Position numbers and translations under genes: made by a program. The notes below the pieces were generated by a model. The model did not search any database. It had not been told where the DNA came from and worked only from the letters and a program-made list of their open reading frames with translations. A DNA stretch of 64,000 bases from Pseudomonadota bacterium. GTDB taxonomy: Bacteria; Pseudomonadota; Gammaproteobacteria; Burkholderiales; Rhodocyclaceae. The number at the start of each line of letters is the position of its first letter. Position 1 is the first letter of the stretch. Positions 4,203-64,000 of this stretch are shown here, one piece after another. Where the stretch lies: NCBI GenBank assembly GCA_022705135.1, contig JAKJFA010000001.1, positions 13,300-77,299 of the forward strand, written 5' to 3'.

Positions 4203-7200
4203 TCAGGCTGTATTGCTTCTGGGTTTGATCACAGCATCGTAGTAGCGGAAGGCATCCCGGATTTGCTCGCGTAACTGCTCATCCGTCCAGGGTTTGGTCA
4301 GAAACTTGTAGAGCGCCCCTTCATTGATCGACTGGGTCACGCTTTCCAGGTCAGTGTAGCCGGAAAGCACGATACGCACAGTATTCGGATGCAGTTCCTT
4401 GACCCGCCGCAGGAATTCGGTACCGTTCATCTCCGGCATGCGCTGGTCGGACAGGATGACCTGAACAGAGTTTTGCGCCAGAACTTCCAGCCCACTACTT
4501 GCACTATCCGCGGTCAGGATGCGGTAGCCTTCCTGGTGGAGCATGCGCCGCAGCGCGGACAGGATATTGGCCTCGTCGTCGACAATGAGCAGGGTGCGGC
4601 GCCCGGCGTCATCCTGATCCCGGGCAGCGGCAATCGACTTTTCCTGCCGCAGCAGATCGGCGAACTGGTCCGCCGGGAGGGCTCTGCTGAAATTAAAGCC
4701 CTGCATATTGTCACACTGGTTCATCCGCAAATACCCCAGTTGCATGTCATTCTCAACCCCTTCGGCCACCACTTGCAGGTTCAGCCGATGCGCCAGACTG
4801 ATGATCGAGGTGGCAATAGTGGCTGAAGTCGGTTCAGTGGCAATGTCGCGCACGAACGATTGGTCGATTTTGAGCGCGTCGATCGGAAAGCGGCTGAGGT
4901 AGGCCAGACTGGAATAGCCTGACCCGAAATCATCGAGCGAGATCCCGACTCCGATGCGTTTGATCTCGCGGAGTTGGACGATGGACTCTTCCGGCCGCGC
5001 CATAAGCATGCTTTCAGTGAGTTCAAGCATCAGGTATTGCGGCAGAACTTCGTGGCGTGCGAGTGCGCGTGCCACTTCATCCGGCAAATTGCCGGATTGA
5101 AACTGGCGCGCCGAGACATTAACGCTGACCCGCAACGCCCTGAGCCCCTCATCACGCCAAACGCGCAATTGCCGGCAGGCGGCATCGATGACCCAGTTAC
5201 CGATGTCGATGATCAGATCCGATTTTTCCGCAAGCGGGATAAACTGCTGCGGCGGAACCAATCCTTGCTCATTGCGATCCCAGCGCAGCAAGGCCTCGGC
5301 GCCGTTGATTTTTCCGGTCTGCAAATCCACCTGGGGTTGGTAGTGCAGTACCAGCTCGTTACGATCCAACGCCCGGCGTAACAAGGCTTCCATTTCCAGA
5401 TCAGCAAGCGCCGCTGTGTTCATATCCTGCGTGTAGAAGCGAAAACGGTTACCGCCCGAACTTTTGGCCTGGAACACCGCAACGTCGGCATTACGCAGCA
5501 GATCGTCAGCGACGCCCCCATCGGACGGGCAAAGCGCGATGCCAATGCTGGCGCTCAGAAAAATCTCCTGGGACGTGTTCAGAGCAAACGGCTGGGACAA
5601 GGCTTCCAGGATGCGCTTCGCCAACACGGCAGCTTCCTGCGGCTCGGCAAGCAGTTCCTGCAAGATCACAAACTGGTCACCGCCAAAACGCGCAAAGGTT
5701 TCTTCACCGCGCAGGAGTGGCCGCAACCTGGAAACCACCTTCGAAAGCAATTCGTCCCCAACCGTAAATCCCAGGCTATCGTTGACCTGCTTGAAGTGGT
5801 CCAGATTAAACGCCAGTATTGCCAGTTGTTTCTGATACCTATCACAGTGCGCAATCGCCTGGGAAAGCCTGTCCGTCAGCAGGTTACGGTTGGGCAATCT
5901 CGTCAGGTCATCATAATTGGACTGACGCTCCAGTTGCGCCAAATAATGCTTACGTTCCCGGATGTCACGGACAACGCAGGAGACATACCATTCCCCCCCA
6001 TGCTGCAGCGGGGCAAATGACAATTCGACTGGGATTTCCCTGCCAAACTTGTTCAATGCAGAAAGTTCCAATAGTTTTTCGACGACCAAATTCTCTCCAT
6101 CGCTAGCGAGGCGTTTCACCACCCCCATCAACTCCTCGCGAGCAGATGAAGGAGAGATAAATGCAAACAGCGGCTGTCCGAGCGCTTCTTCCCGGCAGTA
6201 ACCGAACAGCTTCTCGGCGGCGCGGTTCCAGACAAGCACACCGCCATTCTCGGCTTCGATGAGAACAAAGGCATCCCGCATGCTCTCTATGGCGCCACGG
6301 AAGCGTTGCTCGCTGGCAATGAGTTCCTGTTCCATCAATTTGCGTTCGGTGATATCGAGGCAGTGCCCAATGTAGCCGATGAACTCGCCCTGACTGTCGT
6401 AACGGGGACACCCGTCGTCCTGAATCCAGCGATATTCTCCGTCGTGGCGGCGCAAGCGGTATTCGATGCTGAATTGTTCACGCTGATCGAAAGCCGCCAC
6501 ATAGGTGTCCAGACAGCGTTGATAATCGTCCGGGTGCACCCCTTCAGCCCAGCCGTTGCCGAGTTCCTGTTCCAGGCTGCGCCCAGTAAACTCCAGCCAA
6601 ATCCGGTTAAAGTAGTTGCACAACTTGTCGGTACCAGAGGCCCAGACCAGCGCCTGTCCGGTATCCGCCAGGGTGCGGTAGCGCTGCTCGCTTTCCTGTA
6701 TCCGCAATTCGGCCTCTTTGCGCTCGCTAATATCGGCGCAGACCCAAACGCTTCCCTCCAGTGGACGTTCCGGATCGACTGCGCGCCCAACCAACGCCGC
6801 CCAAAACTGGCTGCCATCCTTGCGCCTGAGCAACAGATCTTCCTTGAACACCCCATGCTCTTCCAGCGCCGCGTAGGCGCGTGCCCCAAATGCCAGGAAA
6901 TCTTCCTGGGAATCGAAAATCTTCTCAGTCGATTCGCCGGCCAGCTCATCGCGATCACAGCCGAAAAGTTCCACGAGTCGGCGGTTATAGGAAACGATGC
7001 GCCTTTGTTTCAAATGCACGATACCGACCTGGACATGATCCAGCACTGCCTGCTGCTCAATTTGCAGTTGGCGTATGCGCTCTTCTTGCAACTTGCGCTC
7101 GGTGATGTCCAACGTAACTCCGGCCAGCAACGGCGGCGCGGCTTGGCGCGGTATCGAAAATTTGTGTGTTTCGAAGTAACGCTTGCTGCCGTCGGACTGA

Positions 7201-7829
7201 GTCACCGCTTCTTCAACCCGGAGATACCCTTGGGCGAGCGCCTGCCGATCATCGCGCTCCATGTCCAAGCCCAGTTGCCCTGGAAACAGGTCTCTGGTGT
7301 GTTTGTCTTTCCAGTCGCTGGTCCCTATCATGGCTTCCAGCATCGGATTGACATAGAGCACCCGGCCATCGCTGTCTTTGATGTAGGTCAGCGCAGGAAT
7401 CACCTCCATGAAGCGCGCGAATTGACTCTCGGCGTCACGTTTCTGGCCACGCGCTTCTTTTTCCGCCAGAGCGCGCCGCACAGTTGCCGGCAAGCGTGCC
7501 AATCCCTCCTTGAGAACGTAGTCGGTCGCGCCTTGCCTCAACACCTCAACCGCCCAATCCTCACCCATGGCGCCAGTGACAAAAATATAGGGCAAGTCCG
7601 GCGAACGTTCGCGCACGATCGATAATGCTTGCAAGCCATCAAATCCCGGCAGTTTGTAGTCGGCCAGGATCAGATCCGGGCGAAATTCTTCCAGCGCCGC
7701 CATGAAGGCCTGCCTGGTTTCAACGCGCAGCGACGAAAAGACCATGCCCGCTTTGCGCAACAAACGCTCGCTGAGCTCGGCGTCCGTCGGGCTATCCTCC
7801 AGCAGCAGAATGCGCAACGGGTCGCTCAT
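4203..7829 (-). CDS. REC - multiple PAS - GGDEF(GGDQF) - EAL - REC signalling protein (c-di-GMP turnover)
   Basis: 1208-aa ORF. N-terminal REC ([13 protein letters not shown]...[13 protein letters not shown]). Several PAS units each ending in [14 protein letters not shown] in the GGDEF position. EAL motifs [32 protein letters not shown]-terminal REC ([11 protein letters not shown]...[12 protein letters not shown]). ATGA overlap with the upstream gene. Confidence 0.9.
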
Positions 7830-59012: not shown

Positions 59013-59753
59013 TCACGCCATCCACTCCGTCAATACCGGAATCTGCGCATAGTGCGTCAGGTCGATTTGCAAGGGCGTGATCGAAACCATGTCGCGCTCA
59101 AGGGCGTGGAAATCGGTTCCGCGGCCGGAATCCTGCGCCGCGCCAGCCGCGCCCACCCAATACACCGTCTCGTTGCGTGGCGTCACCATCTTCACCACCG
59201 ATTCCGCTTTATGGCGCTTGCCGAGCCGGGTCACCTCCATGCCCGCCAGGCGGTCATGCGGAATATCCGGAACATTGACATTGAGCAGCACCGGCTGGCG
59301 AATGGGCTGCCGGAGGAAGCGCTCAACCAGGCTGCGCGCCACCCGGCCCGCTGTCTCGTAATGCAGCGCCTCGAAACTGCCGAGCGAAACCGCCAGCGAC
59401 GGAATACCGAGCAGAAAGCCTTCCATGGCGGCGGCCACCGTTCCGGAATAAATGGTGTCATCCCCCATGTTGGGCCCCTGATTGATGCCGGAGACAATCA
59501 TGTCGGGCAGGTCGTCGAAGAGGCCGGTCACGGCCAGATGCACGCAATCCGTTGGCGTGCCATTGACGAAGAAAAAGTCATTGGCCGCCTTGCGCACTGT
59601 CAGCGGCCGATCCAGAGTCAGGGAGTTGCTGGCGCCGCTCTGGTTGCGCTCGGGCGCCACCACGACGATTTCCGCCAGTTCCGCCAGCGCGTCCGCCAGA
59701 ACCTGCAGGCCGGGGGCCAGATAACCATCGTCGTTGCTTACCAGAATACGCAT
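59013..59753 (-). CDS. surE: 5'/3'-nucleotidase SurE
   Basis: Start trimmed to ATG 59753 ([11 protein letters not shown]...). [24 protein letters not shown]. Confidence 0.95.
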
Positions 59754-59801
59754 AAACTGCCTGCCTTGGGCCAAAATCAGCGCCGTATTTTAGCAGACTG
59801 G

Positions 59802-60085
59802 CTTAACAGGCTGTTGAAGAACTCCACGGGGTTGCGGCGCAGGCTTTCCGGGATGGGATGCACGAAAGGATGCGAAGCTAATGGTCGATCCCCTTGGCGA
59901 GCTTCCTGACAAAGCAGACCGCACGGAAAGACGCGCCCCTCCGGGTTTGCGCGAAAAATGCCCATCTGCATTGTTGCGCTCCTCGGCATCGTAGTCCCGG
60001 CTACGACCTTCGTCGCGCGTCGCGCATCTGAGCATTTTTCGTGTCAAACGCATTCTCCCGGCGAGTTTTTCAATAGCCTGTTAAC
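59802..60085. mobile_element. MITE-like non-autonomous element, copy B (284 bp)
   Basis: TIRs CTTAACAGGCTGTTGAAGAACTCC... and ...GAGTTTTTCAATAGCCTGTTAAC. The interior matches copy A at 14499-14918 minus the 136-bp block. It abuts an extra half-TIR, giving the 16-bp palindrome AGCCTGTTAACAGGCT at 60075-60090. Confidence 0.7.
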
Positions 60086-60211
60086 AGGCTGTTAAAGAAG
60101 CGCATTCCGGCCAAAGCCGGAATCCAGAAGAGAACACACTGGACCCCGGCTTGGCCATCTCTTGAAACGCCACTTTGCAATTGCCAAGGTGACGAAACCA
60201 TCCGCGTTTCG

Positions 60212-60796
60212 CTAAACGCTCAATCCATCGAGCGGGCTGATGACGCCGCGTCCGCCCCGGTTGAGCACATGCGTATAGATCATTGTGGTGGATACATCGG
60301 AATGGCCGAGCAATTCCTGCACGGTTCGGATGTCGTATCCCCCTTCCAGCAGATGCGTGGCGAAAGAATGGCGCAAGGTATGCGGCGTGGCCGGCTTGAC
60401 CAGACCGGCGTCGCGCACGGCCTGGCGAATCGCCCGCTGCACCGCCTGATCTTGCAGATGATGGCGCCGTACAGCGCCGCTGCGCGGGTCCTAGGACAGA
60501 TGTATGGAAGGAAAGACGTATTGCCAAGCCCATTCCCGTTCGGCGTTAGGATACTTGCGCGCCAGCGCGTAAGGCAGATACACCGCGCCGTTCCCGGCGG
60601 CCAGATCGGAATCATGCAGCGCCTTGACTTTGAGCAGATGATCTTTCAATGGTGTGCGCAAAGCAGCCGGCAGCATCGTGACGCGATCCTTGAAGCCCTT
60701 GCCATCGCGCACCAGAATCTGGTGCCCCGCGAAATCGACATCTTTGACCCGCAGCCGCAAGGCTTCCATGATGCGCAAGCCGGAACCATAGAGCAG
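60212..60796 (-). pseudogene. intI: Integron integrase intI, 5'-truncated (starts near the first catalytic Arg) and interrupted by an in-frame TAG at 60491-60493
   Basis: Translation reads [22 protein letters not shown]...[11 protein letters not shown]...[50 protein letters not shown]...[54 protein letters not shown]. It is collinear with IntI1 as I remember it, including the IntI-specific ALxRKYPxA...W...F insertion. ORFs 60491-60928 and 60212-60442 are in the same frame (48 nt apart). Confidence 0.85.
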
Positions 60797-60928
60797 ATTG
60801 GCGATCAGTTCCAGTAACTGGGTGCGGGCGACTTTCGGCTTCACCAACACCGCCTTGCCACGCTCATCTACCCCGTGAATTGCAAATACGTTCTTGGCGA
60901 GATCGATTCCAACAGTGATAATGCTCAT
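60797..60928 (-). mobile_element. Remnant of an IS110-family (DEDD) transposase gene: first ~44 codons only, fused in frame to the intI remnant
   Basis: [44 protein letters not shown] matches the highly conserved IS110-family N-terminus (VGIDLAKxxFxxHGVDxxGK). The rest of the transposase is absent. The junction position is +/- a few codons. Confidence 0.7.
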
Positions 60929-61041
60929 GGACTTCCCCTTTCGATGGTTTCAAATGGACGACTTCGACATCACCATTTTGGCACTCAACTGCCGTTCGCG
61001 GCTTCCGCCGCAGCCTCGGGACGGGGAAGTCCCTTTCATTC

Positions 61042-61048
61042 GTTATGC
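61042..61048 (+). other. Integron core site GTTATGC marking the 5' boundary of cassette 1 (crossover between G61042 and T61043)
   Basis: TTATGC is the exact complement of GCATAA in the R'' box of the same cassette's attC (62668-62674), as expected for a cassette excised and integrated at G/TT. Confidence 0.7.
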
Positions 61049-61071
61049 CCCATTCCGGGAGTCTCACTGCC

Positions 61072-62673
61072 ATGACTGAAAGGCGCACGTTAACCCTTCC
61101 GCGCATCAACGGTGCAACCGAATCCATAGAGACAACACAAAGCCTGTTATTCATCGGTGCGAATGGTTCCGGTAAGACACGCCTCGGCACATGGATTGAA
61201 ATCACTTCGCCTCAGCGCGAATTAGTTCATCGAATTTCCGCCCAAAAGTCGTTGTCGATGCCAGATTCGACGACACCAGTTTCAGTCGAGATTGCTGAGA
61301 AGAGCCTCTTATTTGGAAACCCGGACTGGAACTATCAACACAAACTCCATAAGTGGGGCAAGAAGCCAGCCACGATGCTTCTTAGCGATTACGAGAAGCT
61401 GATGGTCTTTTTGTTTTCAGATGAAACTGAAGAGAATGCGAAATTCAAGATTGCAGTTAAGGCCTGCACAACACGCATTGAGCCGCCAGTAACAAAAATA
61501 GACCTGGTCAAAGAGATATGGGAGAAGATACTTCCGCACCGCGAACTTGTAATCGGTGGCTTACGAGTTCAAACAAGAGTCAAGGGGCAATCCGAGAAGA
61601 TTTACAAATCATCGGAAATGAGCGACGGCGAGCGGGTTATTTTCTATTTAATTGGGCAATGTCTGGCAGCTCCAAAGAATGGAATCATCGTTATCGATGA
61701 ACCGGAGTTGCATCTTCACAAGTCAGTACAGGCACCTCTTTGGGCGGAAATTGAGAGGCTTAGAAGTGATTGCCTCTTTGTATATCTGACACACGATGTA
61801 GATTTCGCTGCCTCACAGGAAGGCGCAGCACGAATTTGGCTGAAATCTTTTGATGGCACATCGTGGGATTGGGAACCCATTAGTGCCGACGAAAATCTTC
61901 CGGACGATCTGTTGCTCGAAGTCCTGGGGAGCAGAAAACCAGTTGTATTCGTTGAAGGAGATAACGGAAGCTACGATGTCTCTTTGTATCGCGAGATGCT
62001 TCCTGGTTTTCTCGTTGTGGCAAGAGGCAGTTGCTCGCAAGTAATCGTCTCGGTCAAAGCACTGAAGGCCAATGCGCAGCTACATCACCTTAGTGTGTAT
62101 GGCATTGTGGATCGAGATCGAAGGGTACCTGAAGAAATTGCTGCCTTAGAAGCGGACTCGATCTTCGTCCTCACAGTTGCAGAAGTCGAAAATCTTTTCT
62201 GTACGGAGGAGGTAATAAAAATTGCCAGCAAAAGGCTTGCGCGCGATCCGACTGCTGACTTCCATAGAGTTTCTGATGAGATATTCAAGCGGCTTCAACA
62301 AGAGCTAGACATACAGGTTTCTCTGCGCGTCGCAAGTGAAATCAAGTTCCAGCTGAGCAAGTTTGACCAAAACATCAAAGGGGAGAGCGCGCTATCCGGC
62401 GCGCTAAATGCGCTTGCGCAAAGCATCGATGTGAAACAACTTTATACGACATGCATGAACACATTCTCGGAGATCATCGCCAATCGTGACTACGAAAAGT
62501 TACTGAGCACGTACAACCGCAAGTCATTGGCTAATCAGGCTAGCGGAGCGCTCGGATTGAAGAGCGGCGAACTGCCTGAATTGATTCTCAGACTAGCGAG
62601 AGGCGACTCCCGAGACGAGATTCGAGCAGCGTTGAAGAAGTACTTTGGAGGCTTTGGTGCTCATGTGGCATAA
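61072..62673 (+). CDS. Cassette 1 protein: ABC-type (AAA_21/AAA_15-like) ATPase fused to a C-terminal DUF4435/Toprim-like domain
   Basis: ATG 61072 (GGGAG 10 nt upstream); an alternative ATG 61045 lies inside the core site. Walker A FIGANGSGKT, Q-loop SAQKS, signature-like MSDGER, Walker B IIVIDEPELHLH, H-loop YLTHD. Then VVFVEGDNGSYDVSLY, GIVDRDRR and AEVENLF, typical of DUF4435. AT-richer than the flanks. Confidence 0.8.
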   Translation: MTERRTLTLPRINGATESIETTQSLLFIGANGSGKTRLGTWIEITSPQRELVHRISAQKSLSMPDSTTPVSVEIAEKSLLFGNPDWNYQHKLHKWGKKPATMLLSDYEKLMVFLFSDETEENAKFKIAVKACTTRIEPPVTKIDLVKEIWEKILPHRELVIGGLRVQTRVKGQSEKIYKSSEMSDGERVIFYLIGQCLAAPKNGIIVIDEPELHLHKSVQAPLWAEIERLRSDCLFVYLTHDVDFAASQEGAARIWLKSFDGTSWDWEPISADENLPDDLLLEVLGSRKPVVFVEGDNGSYDVSLYREMLPGFLVVARGSCSQVIVSVKALKANAQLHHLSVYGIVDRDRRVPEEIAALEADSIFVLTVAEVENLFCTEEVIKIASKRLARDPTADFHRVSDEIFKRLQQELDIQVSLRVASEIKFQLSKFDQNIKGESALSGALNALAQSIDVKQLYTTCMNTFSEIIANRDYEKLLSTYNRKSLANQASGALGLKSGELPELILRLARGDSRDEIRAALKKYFGGFGAHVA

Positions 62674-62736
62674 CCCTGCGGTCCACCGGACGCTGCGCGA
62701 TAAAGCCGCGCAGCGCCGGTGACCTCCACGTTGGCC
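62668..62736 (+). other. attC recombination site of cassette 1 (69 bp)
   Basis: R'' GCATAAC ... imperfect palindrome CACCGGACGCTGCGCG-ataaagc-CGCGCAGCGCCGGTG ... R' GTTGGCC. Overlaps the stop codon of the cassette ORF. Confidence 0.8.
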
Positions 62737-62764
62737 GTCATGAGGAAGCTCGTAAGGAGTCATC

Positions 62765-63847
62765 TTGGATAAACGCTATCAAGTATTCGTAAGTTCCTCC
62801 TATGAAGACCTTCGGGAGGAAAGGCAAGAAGTTATGCATGCTCTTCTCGAACTGGATTGCATCCCTTCTGGCATGGAGTTGTTTCCGGCTGCTGATGAAG
62901 ATCAGTGGACGTTGATCAAAAAGGTCATTTCCGAGTGCGACTACTACCTGATTATTTCCGGCGGACGGTACGGATCGATTGGGCCATCTGGACTGAGTTA
63001 CACGGAAATGGAATACAGGCACGCCCTAGATATTGGGAAGCCGATAATCGGGTTCCTTCATAAGGATCCAATGCAACTTCCGGCCGGGCGTTGCGAGCAA
63101 ACCGAAGATGGAAAGAAGAAACTTCTTGCACTGAGAGAGTTGGTACAAAAGAAAATGTGCAAGTTCTGGACAACGCCTGCCGAATTAGGATCTGTTGCTA
63201 GTCGCAGCCTAGTTCGATTAATCAAGACAACGCCGGCGGTGGGATGGATAAGAACCAATCAAGCGATGGACTCTGTAGCTGCCGGCGAGATTCTGAAGTT
63301 GAAAAAGACTATCGATGACCTGCAAACGAAGCTCCAAGAAGCGCGGCTTTCCGGGCCCAGTGGGAGCGAAAGTTTGTCTCAGGACGAAGACGAATTTGCC
63401 ATTCATTTCAAGTTTGAGACGAGAGATGCATCGAGGGAAGAATGGACTTGGGACTACGAGGTCGATTTAACATGGAATGAAATCTTTTACGACCTCGGCC
63501 CCGTGATGCTTAACGAAGCTTCTGATATTGATGTGCGTACTGCACTCAATCAAACCGTTCGAGAGCGTTCAAGAAAGTTGCGTGGTGCAGACAAGAATCT
63601 GAAAGGACATACGGCGTTGTCAAGAACGTTCACGGTTTCGGAACATGATTTTCAAACTGTCAAAATTCAGCTGATTGCCTTGGGCTTGATTGCAAAAAGC
63701 CAAAAGGCACGTAGCGTCAAAGATTCGCGGACCTTTTGGGCACTCACTCCTTATGGCGATCAGGTGCTGACCACACTGAGAGCAATTAGACGCGGTCCCG
63801 GACTTGAAGCGCCCGGCCCACAAGAGGACGCTGCGGAGGGTGAATGA
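62765..63847 (+). CDS. Cassette 2 protein: N-terminal DUF4062 domain, coiled coil, C-terminal possible winged-helix region
   Basis: TTG 62765 with perfect AAGGAG 5 nt upstream. YQVFVSSSYEDLREERQEVMHALLELDCIPSGMELFPA...CDYYLIISGGRYGS is the DUF4062 signature. ILKLKKTIDDLQTKLQEARL is the coiled coil. The C-terminal ...FWALTPYGDQVL is wHTH-like. Confidence 0.8.
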   Translation: MDKRYQVFVSSSYEDLREERQEVMHALLELDCIPSGMELFPAADEDQWTLIKKVISECDYYLIISGGRYGSIGPSGLSYTEMEYRHALDIGKPIIGFLHKDPMQLPAGRCEQTEDGKKKLLALRELVQKKMCKFWTTPAELGSVASRSLVRLIKTTPAVGWIRTNQAMDSVAAGEILKLKKTIDDLQTKLQEARLSGPSGSESLSQDEDEFAIHFKFETRDASREEWTWDYEVDLTWNEIFYDLGPVMLNEASDIDVRTALNQTVRERSRKLRGADKNLKGHTALSRTFTVSEHDFQTVKIQLIALGLIAKSQKARSVKDSRTFWALTPYGDQVLTTLRAIRRGPGLEAPGPQEDAAEGE

Positions 63848-63848
63848 C

Positions 63849-63915
63849 GGCCAACCACTCATTCCACCGGACCTGCGCGAAAAGCCGCGCAGGCCGGTGA
63901 ATTCAAACGTTGGCG
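63849..63915 (+). other. attC recombination site of cassette 2 (67 bp); cassette 3 begins at 63910 and runs off the window
   Basis: R'' GGCCAAC ... CACCGGACCTGCGCG-aaaagc-CGCGCAGGCCGGTG ... R' GTTGGCG. The R'' is the exact complement of the GTTGGCC at the cassette 1/2 junction. Confidence 0.85.
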
Positions 63916-64000
63916 TCTTCACGCAGCCATGGAATATTTCGCGGCAGTAGTCCCTAAATCAGAATCTGAACTTGTGTCTGTGTTCCCCTTTAGCCCTTTC

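Follow-up and report, generated by a model that had tools for sequence, protein, structure and literature searches.

A probable single-gene PARIS-family ariAB on a mobile integron cassette beside a decayed integrase

The window analysed (the whole stretch of 64,000 nucleotides) carries, on the chromosome of a betaproteobacterial MAG, a gene that is probably a single-gene ("merged") ariAB of the PARIS family, located on a mobile integron cassette beside a decayed integrase. The PADLOC profile "AriAB" (PDLC02982) matched the 533-residue product over its entire length, with 668 bits and E 2.4e-201 (protein positions 4-526 against profile positions 26-565 of 570), and phrog_25246 was matched over its full length (E 7.6e-173). 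Judged from these profiles, the protein is a typical member of the catalogued fused AriAB form of PARIS and no new kind of defence. PADLOC, and presumably also DefenseFinder, would label the gene PARIS/AriAB.

The cassette, its integron and the expression of the gene

The elements recognised around the gene were the following:

60212-60928, minus strand: integron integrase remnant (NCBIfam TIGR02249, Pfam Phage_integrase)
60797-61041, minus strand: IS110-family fragment (NCBIfam NF033542 transpos_IS110, E 5.3e-6, residues 5-56 against profile positions 1-56)
61042-61048, plus strand: R' core site GTTATGC, the 5' cassette boundary, with the crossover between G and TT; exact complement of R'' GCATAAC at 62668-62674
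61057-61061, plus strand: Shine-Dalgarno sequence GGGAG, read from the sequence, 10 nt 5' of the ATG at 61072
61072-62673, plus strand: ariAB-type gene, an open reading frame encoding a 533-residue fused ABC ATPase and DUF4435/Toprim-like protein
62668-62736, plus strand: attC of the ariAB cassette, 69 nt, with R'' GCATAAC overlapping the stop codon TAA and R' GTTGGCC
62731-63909, plus strand: next cassette, encoding a DUF4062-domain protein (coding sequence 62765-63847), with its own attC at 63849-63915

Since R'' overlaps the stop codon and the attC ends in R' GTTGGCC, the ariAB cassette spans positions 61043-62730 (1,688 bp). For the bottom strand of its attC, a fold of -40.5 kcal/mol was predicted whose stem contains a single bulged base. 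Complementarity between the 5' end and R'' was present in both the ariAB and the DUF4062 cassettes; in the latter, GTTGGCCGTCAT at 62730 was 100% complementary to ATGACGGCCAAC at 63844-63855, the attC folded at -41.3 kcal/mol, and the Pfam DUF4062 model matched the product (E 5e-28). GC content fell from about 62% to about 47% over the cassettes. A search of positions 59600-64000 against Rfam gave no match.

Homology with other ariAB cassettes (loci L001 and L002) started at R', stopped at the attC and gave way to divergent sequence beyond the R' of the attC. The count of boundary pairs was restricted to the 12 closest loci (at least 57% identity, from different taxa), because a crude attC detector, applied to 84 loci, gave too much noise with distant homologues; in eight of these 12 the gene was flanked by the pair GTTATGC...GCATAAC. 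The unit made up of ariAB and its attC was found in unrelated contexts in Nitrosomonas, Kangiella, Marinobacter, Allopseudospirillum and Synechococcus, the cassette occurring in other surroundings at loci L001, L002, L007, L009, L011, L012 and L014. The gene and its attC travel between genomes as one unit, and from the boundaries kept in distantly related taxa it can be seen that a gene of PARIS type circulates in integron-cassette form. The earlier note on this DNA had proposed carriage on an integron cassette, and R'/R'' complementarity, canonical attC sites and the recurrence of the unit in unrelated contexts all bear this out. Its label "Cassette 1" is right in so far as ariAB comes first beside the remains of intI, but intI lacks its 5' third and attI is absent.

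Positions 242-315 of the IntI profile were recovered at 60212-60442 and positions 118-224 within 60491-60928, with a stop or frame break between them; the matches to TIGR02249 (E 2.4e-39 and 3.1e-44) were both under the full-length cut-off, and the N-terminal ~117 residues were absent from the remnant. The IS110 fragment consists of the first ~44 transposase codons, in frame with the IntI remnant, plus a 113-bp upstream region adjoining the cassette R'. Alignment with the IS110 element of the L007 array gave no close relationship. Because the integrase is cut off by the IS110 fragment and the frame break, neither attI nor the cassette promoter Pc survives; a functional IntI with attI was not present beside the cassette. 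With attI lost and IntI broken, the array thus amounts to a degraded integron, comparable to an attC cluster without integrase.

The open reading frame ending at 62673 would encode 542 residues from the ATG at 61045, or 533 residues from the ATG at 61072. The second start is favoured by the GGGAG site, which is conserved in the L001 cassette, and by the N-terminus MxxKRxLxLP shared by the homologues, mostly of 533 residues. An exact sequence look-up identified the GenBank record of the 533-residue protein as OQA33437.1, named "hypothetical protein". The frame was intact with all catalytic motifs present, and dN/dS against other cassette copies was 0.05-0.09; purifying selection acts strongly on the gene.

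Expression of ariAB at this site is uncertain because attI, Pc and a working IntI have been lost. It is possible, though we consider it doubtful, that the gene is intact but silent here, the cassette being stored idle, until moved or given a promoter, in an integron dead for lack of IntI, attI and Pc. The truncation and interruption of intI and its fusion to the IS110 fragment would fit such a state, and promoter-like sites near ariAB were no commoner than in shuffled sequence, the upstream sigma-70-like sites included; a terminator scan likewise stayed at chance level. Most cassettes of chromosomal arrays are moreover reported as unexpressed (PMC11023631). On the other hand, the frame is intact, with every catalytic residue and a good Shine-Dalgarno sequence, and a TTGGCG-17-GATAAT site at 60894-60922, within the IS fragment, is directed toward ariAB. 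In addition, the lone Nitrosomonas cassette copy lies between nrdB and fumC and is oriented like both, and read-through into that copy is plausible. Silence would be compatible with the merged-PARIS identity, because it concerns the expression state and not what the gene is.

The two halves of the protein and its family

Features of the protein and their positions in the gene were as follows:

61072-61890, plus strand: ABC/SMC-type ATPase half, about residues 1-273 (Pfam AAA_21, motifs, Foldseek)
61156-61179, plus strand: Walker A motif GANGSGKT, residues 29-36, with K35
plus strand, residues 56-60: Q-loop motif SAQKS, with Q58
61618-61635, plus strand: signature motif MSDGER, residues 183-188
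plus strand, residues 205-216: motif IIVIDEPELHLH, quoted in the earlier note and present
61684-61701, plus strand: Walker B motif IIVIDE, with D209 and E210
plus strand, residues 240-242: THD motif, with the H-loop H241 at 61792-61794
61933-62514, plus strand: DUF4435 domain, residues 288-481 (Pfam DUF4435; PADLOC AriB PDLC02983)
plus strand, residues 293-302: motif FVEGDNGSYD, with E295 at 61954-61956
plus strand, residues 347-351: motif DRDRR, with D347 and D349 at 62110-62118
plus strand, residues 371-376: motif EVENLF, with E371 and E373 at 62182-62190

In the N-terminal half, Pfam AAA_21 scored above its cut-off (E 2.6e-10, 41 bits against 27) whereas AAA_15 scored below its own, which by sequence suggests the AAA_21+DUF4435 class. 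Walker A, signature, Walker B and H-loop were invariant among 67 diverse family members (33-60% identity). The helical insertion of this half is short (about residues 60-155); Walker A and signature are separated by about 150 residues, compared with about 325 in AriA. The shortening relative to AriA lies in the helical/coiled-coil insertion of the ATPase, which is roughly 175 residues smaller. The AlphaFold2 model of the whole protein had a mean pLDDT of 83.8, and Foldseek matched it to GajA, PtuA and SMC heads at E-values of 1e-6 to 1e-4.

The C-terminal half was matched by Pfam DUF4435 (PF14491; E 4.5e-18, 66.3 bits against a cut-off of 27) and by PADLOC AriB PDLC02983 (E 7.7e-16). Here a helical bundle extending to residue 532 comes after a Toprim-like beta-alpha core (about residues 288-377). 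Among the same 67 family members E295, D347, D349 and E373 were invariant, and E371 and D302 were conserved in at least 90%. In the AlphaFold2 model of this half (pLDDT 91.9) the glutamate closes strand 1 and the DxD follows strand 3, positions of acidic residues that agree with a Toprim topology. When the isolated C-terminal model was compared with the PDB, Foldseek returned nothing below E 0.09. Against BFVD, the best matches were an RloB-like protein (E 0.019), a topoisomerase (E 0.031) and a primase, none of them significant; these viral matches are suggestive and compatible with a Toprim fold. Foldseek matched the whole model to chain 8v47_H of the AriA-AriB complex (E 1.2e-4, TM 0.35), a chain of 306 residues that is probably AriB.

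Sequence similarity to two-gene PARIS was marginal. A search of the PDB with the single 533-residue protein gave no significant match; the family profile reached AriA (8ux9_B, E 3.8e-5) over ~65 residues of the signature-Walker B segment, and it was this segment alone that extended to AriA, PtuA, OLD and GajA. AriB was absent from the PDB matches of the C-terminal-domain profile, even at E<=10.

Relatives of the protein formed 2,789 clusters (50% identity) at E<=1e-3 and 1,170 at E<=1e-30, and were spread over many phyla. Among the best 150 listed, nearly all measured 520-570 residues. Oenococcus phage phi9805 carries a relative, and plasmids, both conjugative and mobilizable, carry others; those on E. 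coli and Salmonella plasmids (25-27% identity) were likewise fused and did not correspond to two-gene PARIS. Fused ariAB genes have already been described (Rousset 2022, PMC9122126; Burman 2024, PMC11464382), the clades "merged 1 and 2" having arisen once, from clade 9 (Burman et al. 2024, PMC11464382). We found no published experiments on fused AriAB in the literature searched, where "PARIS merged" is a bioinformatic category. The family is huge and yet, in its fused form, apparently uncharacterised.

Most of what the earlier note had read from the letters stood up. The 533-residue frame on the plus strand was there, each quoted motif could be located at defined residues, and both domains lay on one reading frame that is the sole gene of its cassette, in line with a single-gene candidate. 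The proposed ABC ATPase plus DUF4435/Toprim-like architecture was confirmed by AAA_21 and DUF4435, both above their gathering scores, and the logic of PARIS, OLD and Gabija was recovered in the AriAB profile match and in GajA and PtuA as the best whole-model Foldseek matches. With regard to the fold of the C-terminal half, on which that reading had been made to depend, DUF4435 was present by sequence, motifs and topology, but the isolated domain had no significant Foldseek match to a Toprim protein or AriB. What did not survive was the suggestion of a distinct, streamlined family: the whole-length PDLC02982 match, the large family of like-sized relatives (~530 residues being the usual size) and the published fused ariAB genes (PMC9122126, PMC11464382) rule it out. 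The shortness invoked for it is real with respect to E. coli AriA plus AriB (464 and about 306 residues, a sum about 237 above the present protein), but the length is normal for fused AriAB.

Proposed mode of action and competing readings

If two-gene PARIS (E. coli B185) is taken as the model, the sensor of a phage-encoded trigger such as an anti-restriction protein would be the ATPase half. Binding and hydrolysis of ATP would then bring about a conformational change, and the Toprim nuclease, active as a dimer, would cleave host tRNA; translation would halt and the infection would be aborted. Activation would not proceed by release from an AriA hexamer, because a covalent link holds the nuclease in place and there is no long coiled-coil scaffold as in AriA. 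A speculative route, more likely than hexamer release, is that engagement of the ATPase heads pairs two Toprim/DUF4435 domains in cis. Since the AriA insertions and coiled coil are largely missing, trigger, oligomer and substrate may all differ from those of PARIS. We tentatively put forward, as a guess that may well fail, that this fused short-insertion AriAB, with its tethered nuclease and no AriA hexamer scaffold, works unlike canonical PARIS (cis dimerisation through the ATPase heads, other triggers or substrates), and that its clade is an old, far-travelled integron cassette that Beta- and Gammaproteobacteria share with a Synechococcus assembly. If true, this would provide a self-contained 1.7-kb model of single-chain ATPase-Toprim immunity.

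The structural matches could also be taken to indicate a single-chain nuclease of OLD/Gabija type, acting on phage or host DNA and not on tRNA, and responding to another cue, for instance nucleotide depletion or RecBCD inhibition. GajA chains were the best whole-model Foldseek matches (E 1.6e-6 to 4e-5, more than 500 aligned columns), class 1 OLD and GajA likewise carry ATPase and Toprim on one polypeptide, and the C-terminal profile does not recover AriB. However, the C-terminal half is DUF4435 and not Toprim_Old, with no match to PF20469 in Pfam; the PADLOC GajA match (E 7e-9) was confined to 59 residues surrounding the signature motif, compared with 668 bits for AriAB; and there is no GajB-like helicase, the neighbour of ariAB being the DUF4062 protein in its separate cassette. 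AriB has also been placed nearer to M5 RNase than to the OLD DNase (PMC10802264 preprint). We consider an OLD/Gabija-type activity improbable, and membership of Gabija or class 1 OLD as such is rejected on the missing PF20469, the 59-residue GajA match and the lack of an adjacent GajB.

A very unlikely reading is that the cassette mainly stabilises the array as an addiction module, in the manner of toxin-antitoxin cassettes in chromosomal integrons. [quoted passage not shown] 2025 preprint). Nevertheless, the family is common outside integrons too: it has members on plasmids, one in a phage, and others in phyla with few integrons, and a fused toxin and antitoxin cannot decay at unequal rates; because they share their decay, post-segregational killing would have no obvious basis. 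A housekeeping ABC-transporter ATPase, as the JGI and PHROG names ([quoted passage not shown], "ABC transporter") and weak NCBIfam transporter-ATPase matches (E 1e-2 to 1e-6) would have it, is refuted in practice by the AriAB match, by NCBIfam scores of 12-25 bits against cut-offs of 190-900, by a gene alone in its cassette with neither permease nor substrate-binding partner, and by the nuclease-type DUF4435 half with its invariant acidic residues.

For the merged PARIS-family gene that we favour, the value as a discovery is small, as it is an ordinary member of a known family. Its compact, cassette-borne form makes an easy construct for studying how a PARIS-type nuclease is controlled without release from its ATPase.

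Comparison with known systems

The two-gene PARIS of E. coli B185 (PDB 8UX9, 8V45-8V49) likewise joins an ABC ATPase to a DUF4435/Toprim effector. The acidic residues E295, D347-x-D349 and E371-x-E373 parallel E26, D88, E90 and E122 of AriB (PMC10802264), and a helical bundle follows the Toprim core in both. In contrast, AriA and AriB are separate proteins, whereas here they are fused, so that the release-and-dimerise activation of AriB is not literally applicable; the insertions and coiled coil with which AriA builds its hexamer, and which are thought to sense triggers, are largely absent here. Fused PARIS (PDLC02982, the DefenseFinder PARIS merge classes, "merged 1 and 2") agrees more closely: one chain of ~530-570 residues with an AAA_21/AAA_15-type ATPase followed by DUF4435, invariant motifs in common, and no family-level differences detected.

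In class 1 OLD proteins (P2 Old, Thermus scotoductus OLD 6P74) and GajA, too, one chain holds an ABC ATPase at its N-terminus and a nuclease of Toprim type at its C-terminus. Alignment by sequence with them is limited to the signature-Walker B segment, they carry Toprim_Old instead of a DUF4435 with helical bundle, and Gabija has a GajB partner that has no counterpart here. RloA/RloB and AbiL combine an ABC ATPase of the same superfamily with a Toprim-like partner, but they are two-gene systems of other Pfam families; the PADLOC AbiLi match to our single-gene protein was partial (E 5.9e-8), and the NCBIfam RloB score was far under its cut-off.

Kieffer et al. and Getz et al. reportedly described defence systems on integron cassettes in 2025. 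We found no report of integron-cassette carriage of PARIS in the PARIS and integron literature searched, and PARIS is not named in the text of the preprint by Darracq et al. or in one supplementary file searched. The ariAB cassette is long by cassette standards (1.69 kb), and its integron is inactivated. Like the integron-borne defence systems of that work (Darracq et al. 2025 preprint), it is an attC-bounded single-gene candidate beside other candidate defence cassettes, and it agrees with the reported bias toward one- or two-component systems, adding one more known system to the defences banked in integrons.

Identity and structure of the ariAB product

The open reading frame ends at 62673 on the forward strand and presented two candidate starts, 61045 and 61072. 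The latter, with a GGGAG ribosome-binding site 10 nt 5' of its ATG, gives 533 aa and agrees with the conserved N-terminus of homologues and the usual length of most. All motifs quoted in the earlier note were located in this protein:

aa 29-36: Walker A GANGSGKT, ATPase half
Q58: Q-loop, ATPase half
aa 183-188: signature MSDGER, ATPase half
aa 205-216: IIVIDEPELHLH
aa 240-242: THD
aa 293-302: FVEGDNGSYD, DUF4435 hallmark
aa 347-351: DRDRR, DUF4435 hallmark
aa 371-376: EVENLF, DUF4435 hallmark

The proposed division into an ATPase and a DUF4435 half was borne out by Pfam, where AAA_21 (E 2.6e-10) and DUF4435 (E 4.5e-18, residues 288-481) scored over their gathering thresholds and AAA_15 stayed under the cut-off. 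The best PADLOC-DB model was PDLC02982 'AriAB' (E 2.4e-201, 668 bits), aligned end to end (protein 4-526 vs profile 26-565 of 570); a second AriAB model (694 positions), AriA, AriB, GajA, PtuA and AbiLi gave partial, weaker matches. Rousset et al. 2022 (PMC9122126), who also described fused ariAB genes, defined PARIS as an ATPase (AAA_15 or AAA_21) with a DUF4435 protein, and its fusions form two clades, 'merged 1 and 2', with a single origin from two-gene clade 9 (Burman et al. 2024, PMC11464382). The product of 61072-62673 is an unannotated fused PARIS/AriAB on an integron cassette, of a kind already known. The earlier interpretation was partly supported: a single ATPase-DUF4435 protein on a cassette, with the logic of OLD, Gabija and PARIS, held, whereas a distinct, streamlined family was not supported, since proteins of about 530 aa are typical of a catalogued fused class and the fusion clades are published.

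In GenBank this product is OQA33437.1, from the MAG Betaproteobacteria bacterium ADurb.Bin341, annotated 'hypothetical protein'. No specific NCBIfam model matched (sub-threshold transporter and PtuA matches only), and phrog_25246, labelled 'ABC transporter' in PHROGs, matched full length (E 7.6e-173). Family members also carry the labels 'energy-coupling factor transporter ATP-binding protein EcfA2', 'ABC transporter' and 'ABC-type lipoprotein export system ATPase subunit', from JGI, PHROGs and one phage record; these are annotation errors inherited from the ATPase half.

The AlphaFold2 model of the whole protein (49-sequence alignment; mean pLDDT 83.8, pTM 0.68) was of low confidence only in a helical insertion at residues 62-101. 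In Foldseek it matched GajA (E 1.6e-6), retron and Septu PtuA and SMC heads in the PDB, with chain H of the AriA-AriB complex 8V47, a 306-residue chain that is probably AriB, at rank 27 (E 1.2e-4). Modelled alone, the C-terminal half (pLDDT 91.9) folded into a beta-alpha-beta-alpha-beta-alpha-beta core and then a helical bundle. E295 closes strand 1, D347-x-D349 comes directly behind strand 3 and E371-x-E373 follows strand 4, which in the predicted fold is the classic Toprim layout. This isolated model had no significant PDB match (best E 0.09) and gave suggestive matches only among viral models (RloB-like E 0.019, topoisomerase E 0.031, primase/helicase E 0.78); the C-terminal-domain profile did not retrieve AriB from the PDB even at E<=10. 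The Toprim/DUF4435 assignment therefore rests on Pfam and PADLOC profiles, motifs and topology, and direct structural resemblance to AriB is at best tentative. This agrees with the weak Toprim signal published for DUF4435 (HHpred E 0.02, spanning some 60 residues; PMC9122126).

Cassette boundaries and the decayed integron

The region consisted of the following features:

60212-60442 (-): IntI remnant piece, profile positions 242-315
60491-60928 (-): ORF including an IntI remnant piece, profile positions 118-224
61043-62730 (+): ariAB cassette, 1,688 bp, ariAB the sole gene
62731-63915: next cassette, 360-aa protein with N-terminal DUF4062 (E 5e-28), own canonical attC at 63849-63915

Both cassettes have perfectly complementary ends: GTTATGC (61042-61048) pairs with GCATAAC (62668-62674), a stretch overlapping the ariAB stop codon, and GTTGGCCGTCAT (at 62730) with ATGACGGCCAAC (63844-63855). 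Such pairs are the hallmark of cassettes recombined at G|TT. Folding energies are about -40 kcal/mol for the two attC sites (62668-62736 and 63849-63915), each with a bulged base, and homology to other copies begins at R' and stops at attC, with unrelated DNA beyond. Carriage on an integron cassette, as first proposed, was confirmed. From about 62% in the rpoS-nlpD-pcm-surE flank, GC content drops to about 47% in the cassettes. PARIS is absent from the integron-borne systems named in the preprint text and one searchable supplement of Darracq et al.

The DUF4062 protein aligned along its whole length with phrog_15411, a family of unknown function (E 9e-112), and had no PADLOC match; its cassette may likewise be phage-related or defensive.

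The integron beside ariAB is degraded. A stop or frame break at 60443-60490 splits the two IntI pieces, and the 60491-60928 ORF opens with ~44 residues from the N-terminus of an IS110-family transposase, in frame with the IntI remnant. The 113-bp upstream region of this element adjoins the cassette R', remnant and fragment together spanning 60212-61041 (-). This junction may reflect either a genuine deletion mediated by the IS or a chimera of MAG assembly. Missing beside the cassette are attI, Pc and the N-terminal ~117 residues of IntI. For ariAB to be expressed here, a different promoter would be required; a single sigma-70-like site (9/12) within the IS fragment points toward ariAB, such sites occurring at chance frequency.

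A ~19-28-nt repeat, TTAACAGGCTGTTGAAGAA, recurs in the stretch that separates surE from the 3' end of the intI remnant (59803-60099): as direct copies at 59803 and 60081, and in inverted form at 60057-60084, next to a palindrome (60066-60099). The copies produce short ORFs ending in ...FFNSLLTG and may be a small REP- or MITE-like element.

Distribution and conservation of the family

The GTTATGC...GCATAAC pair flanks the gene in eight of the 12 closest loci, namely the window and the following:

L001: array of small same-strand genes
L002, Nitrosomonas MAG GCA_018057725.1, 5814-7640: lone ariAB cassette, 85% identity, between nrdB (ribonucleotide reductase small subunit) and fumC (fumarase)
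L007, 10001-18113: ariAB cassette, 79% identity, in a run of small same-strand genes
L009, Allopseudospirillum
L011, Kangiella
L012, Marinobacter
L014, Synechococcus sp. RedBA-s assembly, 5960-7700: 63%-identical ariAB between GTTATGC and GCGTAAC

The pair was decayed at L005 and missing at a Sphaerochaetaceae locus and two Deinococcales loci. The Nitrosomonas cassette, with the same R'' and attC stem and a degenerate R' (CATAAGA instead of GTTRRRY), looks stranded outside any integron. The L007 run, which also holds an IS110-family transposase (opposite strand) and a TIR-domain protein gene, looks like an array with several defence-like cassettes. More attC-like sequence follows ariAB in L014, and the locus suggests that the same cassette lineage is present in a cyanobacterial, possibly contaminated, assembly. 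Between cassette copies dN/dS was 0.05-0.09 with synonymous sites near saturation, which, with a unit shared between contexts, indicated at the sequence level that cassette-borne ariAB is an old, functional and mobile gene.

Word-indexed searching across 5.8 billion proteins yielded 2,762 matches, the best 120 at 67-90% identity and almost all of 529-543 aa. Exhaustive search of 1.84 billion 50%-identity cluster representatives gave 2,789 matches at E<=1e-3 (1,170 at E<=1e-30), the best 150 being nearly all of 520-570 aa with full-length alignments. The genome scan found relatives in Proteobacteria, Bacteroidota, Clostridia, Cyanobacteria, Planctomycetota, Deinococcales, Acidobacteriota, Saccharibacteria and one chlamydial MAG; others were carried by conjugative or mobilizable plasmids of Burkholderia gladioli (64.5% identity), Campylobacter, Bacillus and Rhizobium, with small ones of E. 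coli and Salmonella, and by Oenococcus phage phi9805. The small E. coli and Salmonella plasmids (5.3-6.5 kb) carry a fused ATPase-DUF4435 relative, 25-27% identical (matches H50-H73) and annotated 'AAA family ATPase', which would suit experiments as an enterobacterial fused AriAB gene.

Among 67 aligned representatives (33-60% identity), G29, N31, G32, G34, K35, G186, E187, D209, E210, P211 and H214 of the ATPase half and E295, D347, D349 and E373 of the C-terminal half were invariant, and H241 was at least 90% conserved; both catalytic centres are thus kept across the family.

Proposed mechanism and comparison with known systems

It is established that the gene encodes two intact catalytic modules in a single chain, belongs to the family, evolves under purifying selection and is mobile. 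The steps of action are modelled on E. coli PARIS (PMC11464382, PMC10802264, PMC12409363): the ATPase half would sense a phage protein, ATP hydrolysis would then license the Toprim nuclease, and this, as a dimer, would cut tRNA in the anticodon stem, so that translation arrest would abort infection. In the chief alternative the fused protein would act as an OLD/Gabija-like DNase; storage of ariAB as a silent cassette is compatible with either reading. We found no experiments on any fused AriAB in the searchable literature; the class appears experimentally untouched, and this gene is a compact, naturally modular example.

AriA (464 aa in the PDB) and AriB (~306 aa) of E. coli are together much longer than the 533-aa protein. 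The difference falls between Walker A and the signature motif, ~150 aa here vs ~325 aa in AriA, where a coiled coil and the insertions IS1 and IS2 occupy this region. The small size thus holds relative to AriA plus AriB, but does not mark a new family. In contrast to two-gene PARIS, the nuclease of the fused protein is unreleasable and most of the AriA scaffold is gone; we propose, speculatively, that activation would occur in cis via engagement of the ATPase heads, as in the single-chain OLD and GajA enzymes.
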